Shown here piece after piece: positions 3,610 through 53,889 of a stretch of DNA of 64,000 bases. This stretch comes from Candidatus Latescibacterota bacterium. Lineage in GTDB: Bacteria > Latescibacterota > UBA2968 > SICM01. Position numbers and translations under genes: made by a program. The notes under the pieces are model-generated. The model was not told the origin of the DNA, did not search any database, and saw nothing but the letters and a program-made list of their open reading frames with translations. Location: assembly GCA_965217865.1 (NCBI GenBank), contig CBDCJO010000002.1, positions 2,432,001 to 2,496,000 of the forward strand, in the 5' to 3' direction. How positions within the stretch are numbered: position 1 is the first letter of the stretch; every line of letters starts with the position of its first letter.

Positions 3610-3613
3610 CTAG

Positions 3614-3805
3614 TGTCGTGTCCCGGAAATTCCTTCAATAATTTCTCGGATAGCGGTCTGTAAACCCTGAACGGAGCGAAGGATCTCTATGTCCCGAACT
3701 ATCAGACAGTTGGTGCGTTCTTCGCTCGCTCGCTCTCGATCAAAATGACAGCCACCGCTACGTTTTTGGAGGCTTTCTTTTGTAAGGAACTTCTGGGACA
3801 CGACA
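3614..3805. mobile_element. 192-bp MITE-like element with 22-bp terminal inverted repeats
   Basis: TGTCGTGTCCCGGAAATTCCTT vs TGTCGTGTCCCAGAAGTTCCTT (20/22 identical), flanked by CTAG on both sides. Its right half recurs at about 23015-23090. Confidence 0.75.
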
Positions 3806-3808
3806 CTA

Positions 3809-19088: not shown

Positions 19089-20001
19089 AATCTCACCCCC
19101 TTAGGAATTACAGTCCTTATGTCCAAGAAAGACAATTTTCATCGAACATCTACTACATATACTGAACCGTGCTCTTTCGCCACAAAAAGCTCGACGCTAC
19201 GGATCGATCCAACCTGTTTATGCGTTCATCTACCGTTTTCATGTTGCCCCCCACGCGTTGGATGTGCTTCAAGGCGTGAATCCTTACAGCTCATAATGCC
19301 GCCATCGCCACCTTTACAGCATCCTCAGCTTATCCCGCTCGTACATGAAAAATGTACGGGACGTATTTATGGGGGGGCAATGGTTAACAAGGAAGGAGCG
19401 TCAAGCCTAGAACCAAAAGTTGTACGATATTTAACACTTTGGACGGAAACCGGCACCAAATTGGTATACGACGACAAAGCGCGATGGACCTCTGTCCGGG
19501 GGGGACAAAATTGGGCTTGGAGATCAATGCCAAGGGGTTAACACCCCTTAATTTTTCCTTCTTGTCCCTTTTTAAACCTTGTAAGTCACCAAAAAGTTCC
19601 ATATCTATCTCGCACGGTCGGCCCGGAGAAGAGGGCCCCTTTCACAACCGTCGATTCCAGTCTGAAAACCAACGTAGCCCGCGCAGCGATTGCGGCTAGA
19701 TCACGAATATATTACTGGGCACACATCGGGGTTTTCCAGATCCTCGGTGCAAGGCCAAGGAAGCGTGGCCAGTTGCTGTGATTTTTCCGTGCGCAGATGC
19801 AAAGCAGGGATATCCTCTCGACTCAAAATGCCAAAAGCCAGCATCCTTCAAGACACGTTGACGGGGAATTTTTGTTTGATTTCAACCTGTTGAGGGCGTA
19901 TATTGTTCCGAAGTTCCGGGTGATCTCGACGGTTTTGCGTAGATTTTTCGTCATTGATTCACCAGATCGGTTCAATCAACGGGAAAAGGAGAGTGCTTTT
20001 T

Positions 20002-20985
20002 ATGGCCGATAATATGCCTTTCGATTTAAGAGATTTCAAGCCGCCGAACATTCAAGCCCGGACGTTTGTTTGGATTGTGCTGGGAATCCTGATCCTGATC
20101 CTTCTGTTTTCTTCCTGGTTCACTGTGGACCCTGAAGAGGTGGGAGTGGTTCTGCGCTTCGGAGAGTTTGTCCGCCAGGAGGAGCCTGGTTTACATATCA
20201 AAATCCCCTTCGGCGTCGAAACCGTTACCAAAGTTCCTGTTGAGCGGCAATTAAAGGAGGAATTTGGATTTCGGACCCAACTTGCGCAGATTCAAACCCA
20301 ATATTCTTCCCACCGGAGTTATCAGGAAGAATCATTGATGTTGACGGGAGACCTGAATGCGGCGCAGGTGGAATGGATTGTTCAGTATCGCATCAAAGAC
20401 CCGTATAAATATTTGTTCCGGGTCAGGAACGCACGCAAGACTTTCCGCGACATCAACGAGGCGGTTATGCGTGAAGTGGTCGGAGACCGCACCGTGAATG
20501 AGGTGTTGACGATCGGTCGGCAGGAAATCGAACACGCAGTTGCGGTGAATCTGCAGGCCCTGTGCGACCAGTACGACACGGGGATCAAAGTGGACCAAGT
20601 GGTCCTTCAGGACGTGAATCCTCCCGATCCGGTGAAACCCGCGTTCAATGAGGTGAACGAAGCGCAACAGGAGCGCGAGAAATTGATCAACCAGGCGCGC
20701 TCGGCATACAATCAGGTGATTCCCAAGGCCCGGGGCGAGGCCGCCCGGACAATCGAAGAGTCCAAGGGTTATGCACTGGAACGGGTCAACCAAGCCCGGG
20801 GGGAAGCGTCCAAATTCAACTCCGTATTCAGGGAGTATTTGCGGGCAAAAGATGTCACCCGGCAGCGAATTTACCTGGAGACGATGAATAAAGTCATGCA
20901 AAATGTCGGTCGAAAATTGATTACGGACGAAAAGGCCTCCGGGATTCTCCCTCTGTTCCAGTTCCAAAAGGAGGAAAGAAGATGA
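20002..20985 (+). CDS. hflK: FtsH modulator HflK
   Basis: TM segment plus SPFH domain: GVVLRFG, SLMLTGDLN, QDVNPPDPVKPAFNEV, TRQRIYLETM. Confidence 0.92.
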   Translation: MADNMPFDLRDFKPPNIQARTFVWIVLGILILILLFSSWFTVDPEEVGVVLRFGEFVRQEEPGLHIKIPFGVETVTKVPVERQLKEEFGFRTQLAQIQTQYSSHRSYQEESLMLTGDLNAAQVEWIVQYRIKDPYKYLFRVRNARKTFRDINEAVMREVVGDRTVNEVLTIGRQEIEHAVAVNLQALCDQYDTGIKVDQVVLQDVNPPDPVKPAFNEVNEAQQEREKLINQARSAYNQVIPKARGEAARTIEESKGYALERVNQARGEASKFNSVFREYLRAKDVTRQRIYLETMNKVMQNVGRKLITDEKASGILPLFQFQKEERR

Positions 20986-21923
20986 AAGCCGTCTGGGGGG
21001 TTCTCGGGCTGATCGTATTGATTGTCGTCATATCATCAGCGTATGTGGTACAAGAGACCGAACAGGTCGTGATTACACAATTCGGAAAACCGGTTGGGGT
21101 TCCGATTACCGATCCGGGGCTTAAGTTTAAAGTTCCGATCATCCAGGTCGCCCATTTTTTTGAAAAGCGGTTTTTAGAATGGGACGGGGATCCTAACCAG
21201 GTGCCGACCCGAGACAAGAGATTTATCTGGGTGGACACCTATGCGCGTTGGCGGATCGCGGACCCTCTGCTGTTCTTTCAGAGGGTTCGGGACGAGCGCA
21301 GGGCCCAGTCCCGGTTGGACGATGTCCTGGACGGAGAGACCCGGAATGCGATCGCAAAGCACGATCTTGTCGAAGTCATCCGTACTTCCAACCGGACACC
21401 AAAGGCCAGCCAAGACCTGACCGAAGGGGAGGAGGCCGAGACCTTTCCTCGTATCGATATCGGGCGTGAAAAGATCACGCGCGGGATTCTGGAAACGGCT
21501 GCTCCGCGTACCGCGGAGCTCGGTATCGAACTGCTGGACCTTCGGTTCAAACGAATCAAGTATGTGGAGGAAGTTCAGAAGAAGATCTTCGAACGGATGA
21601 TTTCGGAGCGACAACGAATCGCGGAAAAATTCAGGTCTGAAGGTCAGGGTGAGGCGAGCAAGATCATGGGCGATAAAGAGCGCGACCTGAAACAGATTCA
21701 ATCCGAGGCCTACAAGACCGCGCAGGAGATCATCGGGAAGGCGGACGGTGAAGCCGTGGCGATCTACGCGAGGGCCTACAATCAGAGCCCAGAGGCGCGT
21801 GATTTTTACGGTTTCTTGAAGACTATGGAGACTTACCAGACGACGTTGCTGGATAAGGACTGGCTGATTTTATCCACCAAGGGAGACTTTTTAAAATACC
21901 TTCAAGACCAAAGGGGGAGATAG
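20982..21923 (+). CDS. hflC: FtsH modulator HflC
   Basis: ITQFGKP, TRDKRFIWVD, WRIADPL, RMISER, RSEGQGE. ATGA overlap with hflK. Confidence 0.92.
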   Translation: MKAVWGVLGLIVLIVVISSAYVVQETEQVVITQFGKPVGVPITDPGLKFKVPIIQVAHFFEKRFLEWDGDPNQVPTRDKRFIWVDTYARWRIADPLLFFQRVRDERRAQSRLDDVLDGETRNAIAKHDLVEVIRTSNRTPKASQDLTEGEEAETFPRIDIGREKITRGILETAAPRTAELGIELLDLRFKRIKYVEEVQKKIFERMISERQRIAEKFRSEGQGEASKIMGDKERDLKQIQSEAYKTAQEIIGKADGEAVAIYARAYNQSPEARDFYGFLKTMETYQTTLLDKDWLILSTKGDFLKYLQDQRGR

Positions 21924-22346: not shown

Positions 22347-22742
22347 GTGGAGGAGCCGGAAATGAATACGCCCGTGGAAGATCTCGATCCGATACCCGAC
22401 GTGTCCACTCGGGACTGGCGGTACTGGAGGACGCCCGTGCTGTTCGGGGCGGGATTCTGCGCCCTCCAAGTCGCCCTCTTCGTAGTGCGGTTCGGCTTCA
22501 GGGATGCAAGCACGGCTGGTCCCGTCGCTTGGGTCCCGGTCCCTTTTGGCCTCGTCTTATTCTTCGCAGGTGGCTTGTTGGTCGGGTTGCTCGCTCAGCG
22601 GCTGGTGCGAGGATGCCACGGTGCGTGGCGGACCTTCCTGCTTGTGGCGATTGCCATAGCCACTCCCTTCGCCGTCGTGTTGGTCGGGATTCCCGTACTG
22701 ATCCGAAAGGTATGGTTGTGGCGAAAACACAAAGGGACTTAG
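22347..22742 (+). CDS. Small multi-pass membrane protein
   Basis: Three hydrophobic segments and a GGAGG RBS before the ATG at 22362. Confidence 0.55.
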   Translation: MEEPEMNTPVEDLDPIPDVSTRDWRYWRTPVLFGAGFCALQVALFVVRFGFRDASTAGPVAWVPVPFGLVLFFAGGLLVGLLAQRLVRGCHGAWRTFLLVAIAIATPFAVVLVGIPVLIRKVWLWRKHKGT

Positions 22743-22774
22743 GGATTACTGGGGCGGCCCATACGGAACCGCGC

Positions 22775-22875
22775 TCATCGAAATACAGGCAGCTGATTTG
22801 ACACAACGGTTTGGTCGCGGATTTTCTCGACAAAACATACTGCAAGATGCACCTGTTTTACCTCTCATATCCACC
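22775..22875 (+). pseudogene. DUF1016/YhcG N-terminal fragment
   Basis: Manual translation AADLTQRFGRGFSRQN, then a frameshift to MHLFYLSYP. Confidence 0.55.
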
Positions 22876-23014
22876 CCCGAGCAGATTCAACGGTAATTAT
22901 ATACTTGATGCAGCCACGGGCTGGGAAATTGAATCGTTATGGGGATGGCTACAGCACTACCAGGTGTAACGCCAATTGAGGTAACAACCCCCATATCCTA
23001 GATCTTCGCTGCTG

Positions 23015-23090
23015 GCTCTCGATCAAAATGACCGCCACCGCTACGTTTTTGGAGACTTTCTTTTGTAAGGAATTACTGGGACACGACACT
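23015..23090. mobile_element. Partial second copy of the MITE (right half), cut at its terminus by an IS110 end
   Basis: CTCTCGATCAAAATGAC...TGTAAGGAATTACTGGGACACGACACT matches 3733-3807. Confidence 0.75.
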
Positions 23091-23383
23091 GATATGTATT
23101 GACCCCTGTCAAGGGCTCCGAAGGTGGTTAGTATGGGTTTATTCTTTGCATAGGTTGTTGTCCGGGGCAGAAGGGACGCTATAGCGACGGTTGATCCGAC
23201 TGATATTCGCGGGTTGGTTACCGTCTGTCCTGGGTTCGTCGCGGAGCTTCCTCAGTCTAGCGTCGAGGGTCAGCCCACTGGGGGGCGGCTCATAGTGTCG
23301 TCGAGGGTTCTCCTGACCGGCCCCTTCTGTCCCGGTTCATTCTCCATCCGCTTACGGATTCGTTGCCTGGGACGTTGATCGTG
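23091..23383 (-). ncRNA. IS110/IS1111-type 3' non-coding region (candidate bridge/seekRNA) and right end
   Basis: Follows an IS110 transposase stop and ends CTTGACAGGGGTCAATACATATC|AG. Internal loops carry ACGACACTA, CTAG and ATATCAG matches to the flank and the element end. Confidence 0.65.
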
Positions 23384-23570
23384 TTATGCGGCCTTTCTGA
23401 CGATGCTGCCGGGGTGTTGATGCTCCCAGGCGATGGCCCAGATGAAGCCGAGCAGCTCCCGCGCGATGGCGGTGCAGACCTTGTTCTTGGGCATCCCCCG
23501 CGCGCTCAGACGATGATACCGTCCAGAAAGTCGTTTCTGCGCCTTCCAGGCGATGGCCTATATGGCGGGC
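23384..23570 (-). pseudogene. IS110-family transposase C-terminal fragment
   Basis: IAWKAQKRLSGRYHRLSARGMPKNKVCTAIARELLGFIWAIA. Confidence 0.8.
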
Positions 23571-23583
23571 GCGGTCCGTTCGG

Positions 23584-23763
23584 CGAGGCGTTGACTCAGC
23601 TAGTTCAGTTGTCCACCCGGCTGATCTGCCAGGAGGGTTTTGAGGCGCATCAGCGGGACCACCTGGGTGTCGATCGGTATAAACGCGGTGAAGGTCGTCG
23701 AGGCTACCGTAGCGGCTATGAGCCGGGCTATCTAGATACTGCCGAAGGCCGCCTCGAGGTCGC
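23584..23763 (+). pseudogene. IS256 transposase fragment
   Basis: Near-identical to the reverse complement of about 43890-44070 (EALTQLVQLSTR...EGRLEVA). Confidence 0.85.
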
Positions 23764-23807
23764 ATACTTTCCTATCCCCCGGAAGGCGGAAGGAAGGGGA
23801 TTGGAAG

Positions 23808-24190
23808 GTGAAACTTCTTGAAGGTGTCGTGATAGGCGTTTCGGCGGGAATTATCTTGAGTCTGTTTTTTTGGGCGAGAGACTTTGTCAAAAGACGTATC
23901 GAGAGACGCGATCAAATACGATATCTCGCCAGTTTGATAGCGAATTTCAGGGAGCTTATATACAGCGCCGAGACGATACATATTTCAGCTATAAGTCAGA
24001 AATTGACAAGAGACCAAATCCGCAAGGCGTATTACGATGACATGCGAAGGCAATTGGATCAATGAAGTGAAACTGGTATTTTTCACCGACCTCTACCCGA
24101 CCGTTCGTTTGAATGATAAAGCATACGAAGGCATATTCGGGAAATTAGAATCCATCAAATGGCTCAAGCTCCCACCAAGGACTACCTGAT
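23808..24190 (+). pseudogene. Small membrane-anchored hypothetical protein, frameshifted near 24062
   Basis: N-terminal TM segment. The frame appears to continue EVKLVFFTDLYP...KWLKLPP after the stop. Confidence 0.35.
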
Positions 24191-24614
24191 TTCCTGAAGA
24201 TGACTGTCTAGAATAACCACTATGCCTAAAGGCATTTCGAATACACGAACCTCCCGAATCGGAAGTTCGCAGGGACGGCGCCGCAAAGCCAAGGTAGCCG
24301 AATCCGACAAGGTCCTTCGTGATATCCTTGAAGAGAGAGAATTCAAGCGGCGCCATCACTGCGGAGGACAGACCTGCCGCAACCATGACAAATCCTTCAA
24401 GCTGCAGAACAAATCTTCGGTGGATTTGAATCATGTCAAAAGCAGAATCTCGTTTATGCGAAGCTTTCGTTCGGATGTGCACTTACACATAACGTTTCCG
24501 CAATTGTGCAAGATGGGCGGGAAGGATCAGCAACGACTCGACGACATGCGGCGAAGCGGGCATTGGCCCGCGACGACGCGATCGCCGAACTTCAGCCGAC
24601 GCTGGAAGAGGTCA

Positions 24615-25640
24615 TCGCTGAGCAGGAGCGTAACCGATTGTTCATCATACTCGAAGAATTGGTTCTTTGGAAGAACACCACGAACGAAGAAGTGATCGAA
24701 CGGGCGCGGCGGGAGATCTGGCAGAGTTGGCGGCGAGCGTGCGCTGAGAATGCGGCGCAACCGAGAGCCACAGAGATTTTCGATCGTCACAAGCTCCCGG
24801 CTTTTCACGATCCGTTTGCGGGGGGTGGAGCGCTTCCGCTGGAGGCGCAGCGGCTGGGGCTGGAAGCCCATGCGAGTGACCTGAACCCGGTGGCGGTGCT
24901 GATCAACAAGGCCATGATCGAGATTCCACCGAAATTTGCCGGCCAGGCGCCGGTGAATCCGGCGGTCCGCCAGGAAAAGAACCTGATCGAGCGCGGCTGG
25001 ATGGGTGCCCAGGGACTAGCCGAAGACGTCCGCTACTACGGGCAGTGGATGCGCGAGGAAGCCGAGCGGCGCATCGGGCATCTGTATCCGAAGATCGATG
25101 TCACCGAGGAGATGGTCGCGGAGCGGCCCAACTTGGAACGCTACAAGGGCCGCAAGCTGACGGTGATTGCGTGGCTGTGGGCGCGGACGGTGAAAAGCCC
25201 CAACCCGGCGTTTGCCGATGTCGATGTGCCGCTGGCCTCGACTTTCATGCTCTCGACCAAAAAGGGCAGGGAGGCATACGTCGAGCCGGTGATTGAGGAG
25301 CAGGGCTATCGGTTCACGGTGAAGGTGGGCCAGCCGCCGGATGCGCAGACGAAGCTAGGAACCAAATCTGGTGGTAGTGGTAGTAGCTTCCTTTGTCTGA
25401 TGTCGCATGTGCCAATGCCGTTCGAGTTTTTGCGTTCCGAGGCAAAAGCGGGTCGTATGGGCGCGTGGGGGGGTGGAGCGTGACGCCATCGCCACCGACC
25501 TCCCCGACGACAATCGACCGCTACGTGAGGGCGGGACCGGAGCCACAGCCTACGCCGAGGCCGTGGGGGTGTATCTGGCGTTGGCGGTCGACAAGTGCAG
25601 CGACTACTGGTCATCAATCTGCAGTTGGCACAATTCTAAG
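24615..25640 (+). pseudogene. DUF1156-family DNA methylase fragments
   Basis: [39 protein letters not shown]. After a deletion: AYAEAVGVYLALAVDKCSDY. Confidence 0.8.
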
Positions 25641-26045
25641 CGACAGACAGCGGAAAACACCTTTGAGCCAGGAGCGCCAAGCCAGACGGTTCCGTTGAGA
25701 CGCAATCAGCCGCGTCCGTTCGACTTGGGCATACTCCGAATGACGGCCTGGATCGATTCTACGCGCCCAAATGACAGCGTTGTTCCTTATGAAGTAGTGG
25801 CTGCCGCAGCCGGAATTGGCCCACACGGACCCACCCCTAGGACCGTCCAGAGAGACCGACTTGCCATCGAAATGAACGTGCCAGCGGCTTGGGTGGAGAG
25901 ACAGCACTGTCAGATCGCCGCAACCGCAGGGGCAGCGCAGGTTGACAGTCCGGTACTTGTGACTAATCCAGAGCTCACCGGCTTTGATTGCGTCAAAATC
26001 GGGCAATACGTCTACGAAGACGGGGCGGAGTTTCACGGGCGTCAT
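25614..26045 (-). CDS. DUF6527-like Cys-rich protein of bacterial ubiquitination operons
   Basis: PVFVDVLP...GELWIS...CPCGCG...W...DG.SVSL...SVW...CGSHYFIRNNAVIW. Confidence 0.7.
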   Translation of the reverse strand: MTPVKLRPVFVDVLPDFDAIKAGELWISHKYRTVNLRCPCGCGDLTVLSLHPSRWHVHFDGKSVSLDGPRGGSVWANSGCGSHYFIRNNAVIWARRIDPGRHSEYAQVERTRLIASQRNRLAWRSWLKGVFRCLSLRIVPTAD

Positions 26046-26054
26046 TCCTGCGAG

Positions 26055-27236
26055 TCAGTCTGCTGTGACAATGCACGGCGTCTCGAGCCGGAACTTGTGG
26101 AGGAACGAAGCCGACCCCGAAACATACTGTTCCGTGCGACGCCGCCACTCCATCACGGCAAGCGACGCCGCCAACGCGTTCACTTCCGGCAGCTGGACGT
26201 TGCGGTAGCCGGGGACATTGCCCTCGACTCTGGCATTCGGAATGGCATCCTTCCACGCGCGAGAGCCTGCGGCATAGGCGCTCGTCGTCACAGCCCCTCT
26301 GACGGCGTAGTCTTCCAGCGTAATGCTCACACCCGAGTCTATGAACGGGACCTCCGCCGCTGAGAGCGCGCAGTAGACGACGTTCTGACGCGGCGAATCG
26401 CCGTCGGTCAGTTGGTCGATACACACGAAGACATAGTCGACGGGATGCGCCGATAGAAACTCGGCGAACATGGACGGGCTGTCCACTCGAACAGCGTGCG
26501 GGTGGATGCCTTCCCGGAGGGAGGCATACTTGGAATGGTAGTAGTCCACTTTGCGCAGGCGCCCCTTGGGACGCGACTCAATCTCCTCGACAGTAGGTGC
26601 GCCCGGTGAGCGCATGAAGTTGTGCCAGTCAACGTCGTCGGAATCCCAAAGATGGATTTCCGCCACTGGCGTCTTCGCAATAAGGTCTAGGACGTAGGCG
26701 CCCGTTCCGCCCAAGCCGATGATCGCAATGCTCTGATCACGGATGCGATCCTGAACCGAGCCTATCGCCGCTCGTGCCTCGAAAGTGTTCGGGATCTTGA
26801 ACGGACCCCGCCTCCCGAGAGAAGCGGTTTCGGAGTAGCCGGCCGCCGACACGGCCCCGACGATCTGCTTCGCATAGCGGTGGATCAAGTCGCTCGCCGA
26901 CACGTCCTCCTTCGGGCTGTTTTGGCTACCTTTCCGGATGGAGATGTTCGACCAGGTCTTGCCGTCGCCGGCGATGTAGCTCTCAATCGGGTTCCCGTCC
27001 GCGTGGTACACGCGCCCGTCGTGCTCTTCGTCAGCGGTGATCCGCACCGCATGGACTGCGCCACCTATCCGGTCATTCGGTTTCCCGTTCATAGGGTCGT
27101 AGGACTTCTCAATGGTACAAGTGCCAACAACCCCGTCTGCAAGCAGACAAGGAACCCGGACGGCCAAGACGACGTCGGAATCGACCCTGACGGCAAACCC
27201 GGCCTGCTCAGCGAACGTGGAGAGACGGTCCCTCAC
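26055..27236 (-). CDS. E2-like plus ThiF/E1 fusion protein
   Basis: IAIIGLGGTGAYVLDLIAKTPVAEIHLWDSD, HNFMRSPG, FVCID, PFIDSG, NVQLPEVNALAASLAV, preceded by a ~150-aa N-terminal extension. Confidence 0.8.
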   Translation of the reverse strand: MRDRLSTFAEQAGFAVRVDSDVVLAVRVPCLLADGVVGTCTIEKSYDPMNGKPNDRIGGAVHAVRITADEEHDGRVYHADGNPIESYIAGDGKTWSNISIRKGSQNSPKEDVSASDLIHRYAKQIVGAVSAAGYSETASLGRRGPFKIPNTFEARAAIGSVQDRIRDQSIAIIGLGGTGAYVLDLIAKTPVAEIHLWDSDDVDWHNFMRSPGAPTVEEIESRPKGRLRKVDYYHSKYASLREGIHPHAVRVDSPSMFAEFLSAHPVDYVFVCIDQLTDGDSPRQNVVYCALSAAEVPFIDSGVSITLEDYAVRGAVTTSAYAAGSRAWKDAIPNARVEGNVPGYRNVQLPEVNALAASLAVMEWRRRTEQYVSGSASFLHKFRLETPCIVTAD

Positions 27237-53846: not shown

Positions 53847-53889
53847 CTACATGTCAATACATAAGGTCTATAAGGGTTCGCATATTTAC

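Follow-up and report, generated by a model that had tools for sequence, protein, structure and literature searches.

The window, which is the whole 64,000-nucleotide stretch of DNA that was analysed, very probably (roughly 0.9) carries on its minus strand the decayed right end of an IS110 element with an IS1111-type layout, whose downstream RNA is predicted to guide insertion to (C)GCT|AG TGTCG, where terminal repeat and flank meet in IS630-family elements. This reading is supported from the sequence by the element ends, the sub-terminal repeats, the location at a MITE end, and the covariation of both loop strands with both target halves. The first-pass annotation had described an RNA-guided recombinase programmed against a MITE terminus, and neither of the two outcomes that it had set beforehand against its own reading, namely insertion of other copies at unrelated sites and a 9-mer lying in a stem that does not covary, has occurred.

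The window remnant

The remnant is composed of a piece of transposase gene and a long non-coding right end, interrupted on its broken side by a foreign fragment:

23384..23593, minus strand: 3' remnant of the IS110-family transposase gene, whose C-terminal 65 codons correspond to residues 307-371 of the intact relative P0002
23585..23763, plus strand: internal fragment of a different multi-copy insertion sequence, 179 bp, with 7 other copies at 98-99%
23091..23383, minus strand: non-coding right end with the predicted bridge/seek RNA, 293 nt, with homologous ends parsed in 122 loci
23094..23103, minus strand: right sub-terminal inverted repeat GTCAATACAT, then the 3-nt extension ATC (23093-23091)

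The transposase frame stops with TAA at 23386-23384 and is followed by 293 nt of non-coding sequence up to the right junction (23091/23090), where the element terminates as CATATC|AGTGTCGTGTCCC. Across this junction, the order is GTCAATACAT-ATC, then AG TGTCGTGTCCC and 88 bp of MITE, and in intact relatives the right repeat GTCAATACAT pairs with a left-end repeat lying 7 nt in from the left junction. The remnant is 85% identical to P0002 over 53 aa. Its last 57 aa match NF033542 (E 6e-6, 25.6 bits), below the family cut-off because the remnant is partial, and a Pfam scan of these 57 aa gave no informative match. The 179-bp fragment, which we take from its motifs to be IS256-like, occupies the place of the 5' part of the IS110 element; a 59-aa piece from it had no match in an NCBIfam scan.

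The target: MITE and IS630 ends

The sequence that adjoins the right junction belongs to a MITE, of which an uninterrupted copy is present at the beginning of the window:

23003..23090, minus strand: target, with the AG core at 23090-23089 and, of an IS630-type MITE, just the half formed by its first 88 bp
3611..3808, plus strand: intact MITE copy, the uninterrupted target, 192 bp inside CTAG flanks, with 19 paired copies in the genome

The right flank of the IS110 end comprises 89 bp of this MITE family, which is about 192 bp long and has CTAG on both sides in 15 of its 19 paired copies. The nine letters ACGACACUA at 23301-23293 are the exact reverse complement of TAGTGTCGT at 3611-3619, and they, like CUAG at 23260-23257 and AUAUCAG at 23206-23200, stand where the first-pass annotation had placed them. 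The chance of meeting a given 9-mer in 293 nt of one strand is about 0.001, and the comparative data exclude chance.

A 1.17-kb IS630 of the same genome (NF033545, E 2.6e-79) has at one end the same 14 bases with which the MITE begins, counting the flank; this IS630 is present in eight near-full copies and one partial copy. The target is therefore an IS630-family end of the autonomous element and the MITE alike, so the claim of a MITE terminus as target is right about the location and wrong about its exclusivity, the end being common to autonomous IS630 and relatives being found at full IS630 ends. With 14 identical terminal bases, CTAG flanks and an IS630 gene (NF033545) in the genome, the MITE is classed as IS630-derived, and it is presumably moved by the genome's IS630 transposase. 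Whether the MITE and IS630 duplicate TA or 4 bp is ambiguous by one base; in one MITE copy (G000:C2:3831234-3831425), CTAC stands at either side, in better agreement with a duplication of 4 bp than of TA.

A further repeat, with an end that begins CTAGCAGCCCGTTGAAG, is present in about 90 copies (e.g., G000 C2:2434079, window 2079). The MITE often adjoins the ends of this repeat, and related IS110 copies elsewhere (L103-L109, L173) carry guides for CTAGCAGCCCGTTGAAG-type ends.

Predicted RNA structure

The consensus fold was obtained by RNAalifold from 46 of 61 guide representatives, the most divergent or damaged being left out, and 27 of its 44 pairs have two-sided change. It has two nested parts of interest here:

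23160..23335, minus strand: predicted RNA core, in which a stem encloses the target arm and a donor arm that contains a multi-loop (RNAalifold, 46 homologues)
23246..23313, minus strand: target arm, with GGAG/CUCC and CCUC/GAGG stems, a symmetric 9x9 internal loop, a GAG(G)/(C)CUC stem and a variable hairpin

The stems that close the target-arm loop are paired in 97.8% of cells, with five pairs showing two-sided changes and none of 500 shuffles scoring as high, against 35-53% of cells paired in slid controls. The first-pass annotation had closed this loop by CCUC/GAGG on one side and AGCC/GGCU on the other; the former stem is confirmed, and the latter is discarded, as it is paired in only 46.7% of cells compared with 95.7% for GAG(G)/(C)CUC in the 46 homologues. 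The AGCC reading arose because of a G-to-C change at 23288 that is present only in the window copy. Folding of the window sequence alone was not significant, either for the 293 nt (z -0.49) or for the 176-nt core (z -1.76), and an Rfam scan of 22700-24000 found no family for the RNA, with one unrelated weak match outside it. Each guide sits between CCUCG and UGAG, a layout that recalls the tandem spacers of TIGR and IS110 RNAs as the text of PMC12045711 describes them.

Guide-target covariation

Four segments of the predicted RNA were assigned as predicted or candidate guides:

23294..23300, minus strand: right target guide CGACACU, the first guide in the RNA, pairing with top strand AG TGTCG
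23257..23262, minus strand: left target guide (C)GCUAG, with covariation at -1 to -4 and GCT in 4 of 7 left-end remnants
23200..23206, minus strand: left donor guide AUAUCAG, identical to the element's final 5 nt followed by the AG core
23227..23232, minus strand: candidate right donor guide CAGGAC, weak, with one mismatch to the family left end AGACC and only loose agreement

A total of 172 loci were parsed, of which six came from handles and six from plasmids, the remainder being the best 80 of 239 genome matches and the best 80 of at least 507 metagenome matches. From these, 122 were kept after removal of 40 without both ends, six with short flanks, three duplicates and one without the loop motif. 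Covariation was counted on the first-listed locus per distinct guide with the window excluded, which gave 60 right and 74 left distinct guides.

Positions 2-6 of the right guide match the five bases after AG in 36, 49, 52, 51 and 53 of the 60 guides, against 16-18 by permutation (p 2e-4), with about seven shifted-register guides left in and counted as misses. The left strand matches the flank at -1 to -4 in 74, 69, 48 and 27 of the 74 guides (permutation 63, 24, 20 and 17) and is at chance at -5 and -6; the end parser presupposed the 7/3 geometry and favoured T-AG, which makes the core and position -1 counts non-independent and does not affect right positions 2-6 or left positions -2 to -4. 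The signal persists when shuffling is confined to clusters of similar RNAs, with 158 of 190 right-guide matches (mean 102, maximum 134) and 191 of 235 left-guide matches (108). Over all 121 loci, 92 match at four or five of the five positions and 10 at two or fewer.

The loop strands thus act in the comparison as the first-pass annotation had proposed, as target guides, with the complementarity to both target halves that characterizes IS110-family RNAs borne out by covariation in the 60 and 74 guides. The proposed 9-nt guide is reduced to seven letters, the AG core at positions 7-8 and the five bases; position 1 shows no covariation (18 of 60, with 19 expected), and position 9 is A almost throughout (55 of 60). 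Similarly, a short left guide is upheld at 3-4 nt plus the core, and much of CUAG is reassigned as a near-fixed clade feature, with T before AG in 68 of the 74 distinct guides and TAG nearly fixed in the clade. The right-guide-first order stands, as the top-strand guide (23300-23294) comes before the bottom-strand guide (23262-23257), which is the order of the IS1111 group. As the window copy has no left end left, we infer its own left target; the limits of covariation at both guides put the predicted window target at (C)GCT AG TGTCG, about 11 nt long (~4 + AG + 5).

In addition, the AC after the left guide was considered as a programmed match to the left end of the element and was rejected, matching in only 27 of 74. 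In L099, L110, L112, L174, L116 and L129, the guides are shifted by one base relative to the core; several of these one-base-shifted guides target palindromic REP-like repeats and have A or G, not T, before AG. Five other loci (L062, L097, L098, L108 and L164) have AA at the right junction and AG at the left, suggesting that the right junction may retain the core of the target and the left that of the donor.

Copies in this genome and intact relatives

Three right ends survive in this genome (window, C2:3730682 and C1:304988), and all three adjoin MITE ends, one of them at TATTG instead of TGTCG. Of the 43 CTAGTGTCG sites in this genome, 39 are MITE or IS630 ends. Left ends survive at seven places, four of them with GCT before AG, as the window left guide predicts; the other three have TCC (two, duplicates of one event) or TAT (one). 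The right-end remnant L227 (G000:C2:3730520-3730700) has CTAGAC as its very first letters, as though a deletion had run from the left junction to the point where the same letters encode the left guide, and the guide sequence may be a deletion hot spot.

Relatives were searched in sets of 61 and 168 related genomes, with matches in 6 and 11, respectively, this genome counted. The genome G125 has 12 near-identical copies with both ends present and an intact 379-aa transposase, P0002, which scores 263 bits on NF033542 (cut-off 140) and has the DEDD RuvC-like domain and C-terminal transposase domain of the IS110 family. All 12 copies have CT at the left and AG at the right with differing left flanks, and 11 of the 12 lie at MITE terminal repeats; together with the three right ends of this genome, this agrees with the earlier expectation that other copies occupy the same type of terminus. 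From the divergence of the left flanks, the element ends are placed 7 bp beyond the left sub-terminal repeat and 3 bp beyond the right one, with no duplication. In intact relatives, the sub-terminal inverted repeat is 10-11 bp long and about 117 nt of non-coding sequence lie upstream of the gene, compared with 293 nt downstream in the window.

Among other relatives, G029 has a frameshifted full copy at CACT|AG TGTCC, and the flanks of G029 and G055 start like MITE ends, although the partner repeat was not found. Off the predicted site are one G125 copy (L051), one G125 remnant (L056) and one G126 copy that carries the G125 guide (L045). The close relatives G102 and G101 show single-step reprogramming, the former with guide AGACUCU at AG AGTTG and the latter with guide CAAAACU at AG TTTTT. 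Many transposase-less mini elements with the left and right sub-terminal repeats of the family are present in G036 (L008, L010, L012, L015-L021), some in tandem and some with part of the target arm only.

Element ends as recurrent landing sites

Within 900 bp, the right flank opens an inverted-repeat-bounded element in 27 of 99 loci and the left flank in 1 of 90. Counted per distinct guide with IS630 matches included, the figures are 13 of 52 right and 1 of 46 left flanks, and short REP-like hairpins account for a few of the repeat-bounded right flanks. The right junction coincides with the end of an IS630 gene in L159, in L160 and, within the ISSfr2 family, in L060. Guides containing GACAC require five changes on a quick transposase tree, of which at least four are forced by well-supported branches; in this tree, L027 and L189 were skipped as broken, and the row of L025 is long and partly mistranslated.

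A tentative proposal, with slightly less than even odds, is that the clade is a specialist parasite of transposon tips, which would keep the TAG junction fixed and retune a 5-base guide repeatedly, and that P0002 would act as a bridge recombinase with an AG core, still active and using a left guide shorter than the right one, likely orthogonal to the CT-core IS621. If so, the RNA fixes the TAG junction that IS630-type elements and MITEs make as their flank at every insertion, and landing one base outside the repeat spares the end of the host element.

It is also conceivable, though unlikely, that a real guide reads just a generic short site, TAG TGTC, and that MITE ends are met since CTAG is rare elsewhere, with no selection for element ends. 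CTAG occurs 2712 times in this genome against about 25000 expected, a ninefold under-representation, and 39 of the 47 CTAGTGTC sites are element ends, which makes a neutral contribution to element-end matching possible. The near-fixed TAG of the clade's guides and the existence of off-element insertions such as L051 point in the same direction. However, the repeated, branch-supported changes of GACAC-type guides on the quick tree and the matching of other guides to other repeat-bounded elements (13/52) would suggest selection, as recurrent matching to element ends seems hard to obtain without it.

Proposed insertion pathway and the donor guide

In the preferred reading, that of an RNA guiding insertion at the IS630-family repeat/flank junction, the element would leave as a circle, by excision or by copying, with ATATC|AGACC at the joint, and the predicted RNA would be loaded on the DEDD recombinase, as suggested by other members of the family in the published texts (PMC11208160; PMC11187229). 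CGACACU would then base-pair to the top strand and (C)GCUAG to the bottom one, with AUAUCAG holding the donor, and strand exchange at the AG core would lead to insertion without target duplication. The landing point would separate T from A in the TA flank and lie a single base outside the terminal repeat, likely leaving that repeat intact and likely giving the incoming element a multi-copy, non-genic site.

AUAUCAG matches the element's own right end across the AG core, as the first-pass annotation had noted. Agreement between this left donor guide and the element end is seen in 114 of the 122 loci, with three that disagree and five unparsed, and the guide tracks changed ends in five loci (ATGAG, ATAAC and, three times, ATACC) and also in G055. 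These changes, to be set against the three disagreeing loci, make it unlikely that a short seekRNA uses the target arm only, with the protein recognising the donor through the sub-terminal repeats and AUAUCAG being no working guide. Such an arrangement would be in line with the IS1111 seekRNAs of 70-100 nt that suffice for transposition according to the text of PMC11187229, the target arm alone being about 70 nt here; in the consensus fold, the donor guide's ATC is paired within a small hairpin, and the right donor guide fits poorly.

State of the window copy and order of insertion

The window copy does not have the intact transposase and the pair of ends that an active element would have. Its transposase remnant has an internal in-frame stop at 23560-23558 and is without the DEDD domain, only the right sub-terminal repeat is kept, the left end being gone, and at 23288, 23249 and 23224 the RNA departs from 90% or more of its homologues, changes consistent with decay. 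Because the transposase is truncated with a stop, the left end is missing and the RNA is changed at three conserved columns, the copy would be unable to move by itself and is, as read from its sequence, a dead remnant. An intact transposase of this clade was not found in this genome, which has fragments only; for this copy, the RNA-guided recombinase of the first-pass annotation was overstated.

The fragment C2:2517792 was tried as the other half of the same copy and this was not supported, with 77 nt absent between the two and a left flank that misfits. A left end of the same IS110 family is present at 53853-53869 of the window (minus strand), cut 5 bp past the sub-terminal repeat, apparently by another IS630-type end, and is oriented like the right end 31 kb off; the idea that the left end at 53869 and the window right end bound one 31-kb element is not supported, its flank TTAT misfitting the left guide.

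Continued expression of the remnant RNA, with a different IS110 transposase of this genome using it in trans, is highly improbable: both guides still match sites in the genome and more distant IS110-like genes (~31% identical) are present, but the clade's own transposase survives here as fragments only, the three conserved RNA columns are changed, and a promoter/terminator scan found none, with no promoter-like site in 23000-23500. A reverse order, in which a MITE or IS630 inserted beside the IS110 end and the guide match is incidental, is scarcely credible, for although the genome is crowded with nested elements and the MITE is often at the ends of other repeats, the MITE prefers CTAG (both sides in 15/19) yet the flank at IS110 junctions is TCAG, guides change along with targets across the clade, and the missing CT sits at the far left end of the IS110 in 12/12 G125 copies, so that the IS110 split the MITE flank and arrived second.

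Comparison with known systems

IS1111-type targeting of other mobile elements is a known habit, and the window case is a well-supported new example with no new mechanism. IS4321 and IS5075 target Tn21 terminal repeats, called a safe harbour in the text of PMC8269217, and are like the window element in being IS1111-type and aimed at the terminal repeat of another mobile family. Their hosts are Tn3-family transposons, whereas those of the window element are IS630 and its MITEs, and they are described as inserting into the repeat, whereas the window element lies one base outside it, in the TA flank. Similarly, ISEc21 is reported in the text of PMC11187229 to target IS3-family genes. The guide order and the terminal-repeat targeting that the first-pass annotation had inferred are both already published for IS1111-type elements; its interpretation stands at its core and went too far in detail and novelty.

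As far as the text of PMC11187229 goes, the seekRNAs of ISEc11, ISKpn4 and ISPa11 resemble the present case in their downstream non-coding region, in sub-terminal repeats with 7-bp and 3-bp extensions, in having the top-strand guide first, in the lack of target duplication and in natural reprogramming. They differ in targeting attC, REP or other linear sites, and in RNAs that were bench-tested, the window RNA being predicted from sequence. The long downstream non-coding region and the 7-bp left and 3-bp right extensions without target duplication are those of the IS1111 group; P0002, with 379 aa, falls outside the strict range of 330-350 aa given in the text of Siddiquee et al. (2024; PMC11187229). 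The clade is filed as IS1111-type layout, and strict IS1111 membership is not claimed.

The IS621 bridge RNA, as described in the text of PMC11208160, likewise has two arms that bear target and donor guides, together with a core of 2 nt and a target about 11 nt long. It lies in the left end, has the left guide first, a CT core, and 7 left and 2 right bases outside the core (PMC11208160), whereas the RNA of the window element lies in the right end, with the right guide first, an AG core, and ~4 left and 5 right bases.

The closest described systems are those around ISSfr2 and ISCARN28. An ISSfr2-family transposase is 54% identical to P0002 and has the same right-end RNA layout, core and 7/3 ends. 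In the text of Durrant et al. (2024; PMC11208160), target and donor guides were drawn for ISCARN28 and multi-loop donor arms were noted in IS1111 orthologues, as in the consensus fold here. The domain strings of ISCARN28 (PMC11208160) have motifs in common with P0002 in an unaligned by-eye comparison, and ISCARN28, which is listed near ISSfr2, looks like a member of the same clade. According to the texts of PMC11208160 and PMC11187229, the ISCARN28/ISSfr2/ISEc45 group differs from the window element in guide and host. The texts on ISCARN28 and ISSfr2, in the parts available, name no IS630 or MITE target, though the ISSfr2-family copy L060 sits at an IS630 end. A search of PMC and bioRxiv listings and abstracts found no paper in which IS630 or MITE ends are given as the targets of this clade, and an IS630 end may already appear in the target logos published for ISSfr2 or ISCARN28.

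The analysis provides a base-by-base guide map (~4 + AG + 5) for a widespread IS1111-type clade that has elsewhere, in the literature searched, only a drawn structure, and G125 offers an intact, recently spread element of this clade. It also extends the mobile-element landing sites to IS630 and its MITEs, a gain that is incremental because the mechanism, the guide order and element targeting are already published and the window copy is dead.

Neighbouring genes in the window

An ORF fragment at 24506-25483, presumably DNA methyltransferase-like, lies near the remnant. At 25614-27236 (minus strand), two adjacent ORFs encode a small Cys-containing protein and a 393-aa protein; the latter has what we take to be a ThiF/E1-like motif, and the pair presumably resembles ubiquitin-like anti-phage genes. 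On the other side, 19954-21923 is occupied by what we assume from its motifs to be an HflK/HflC-like gene pair.
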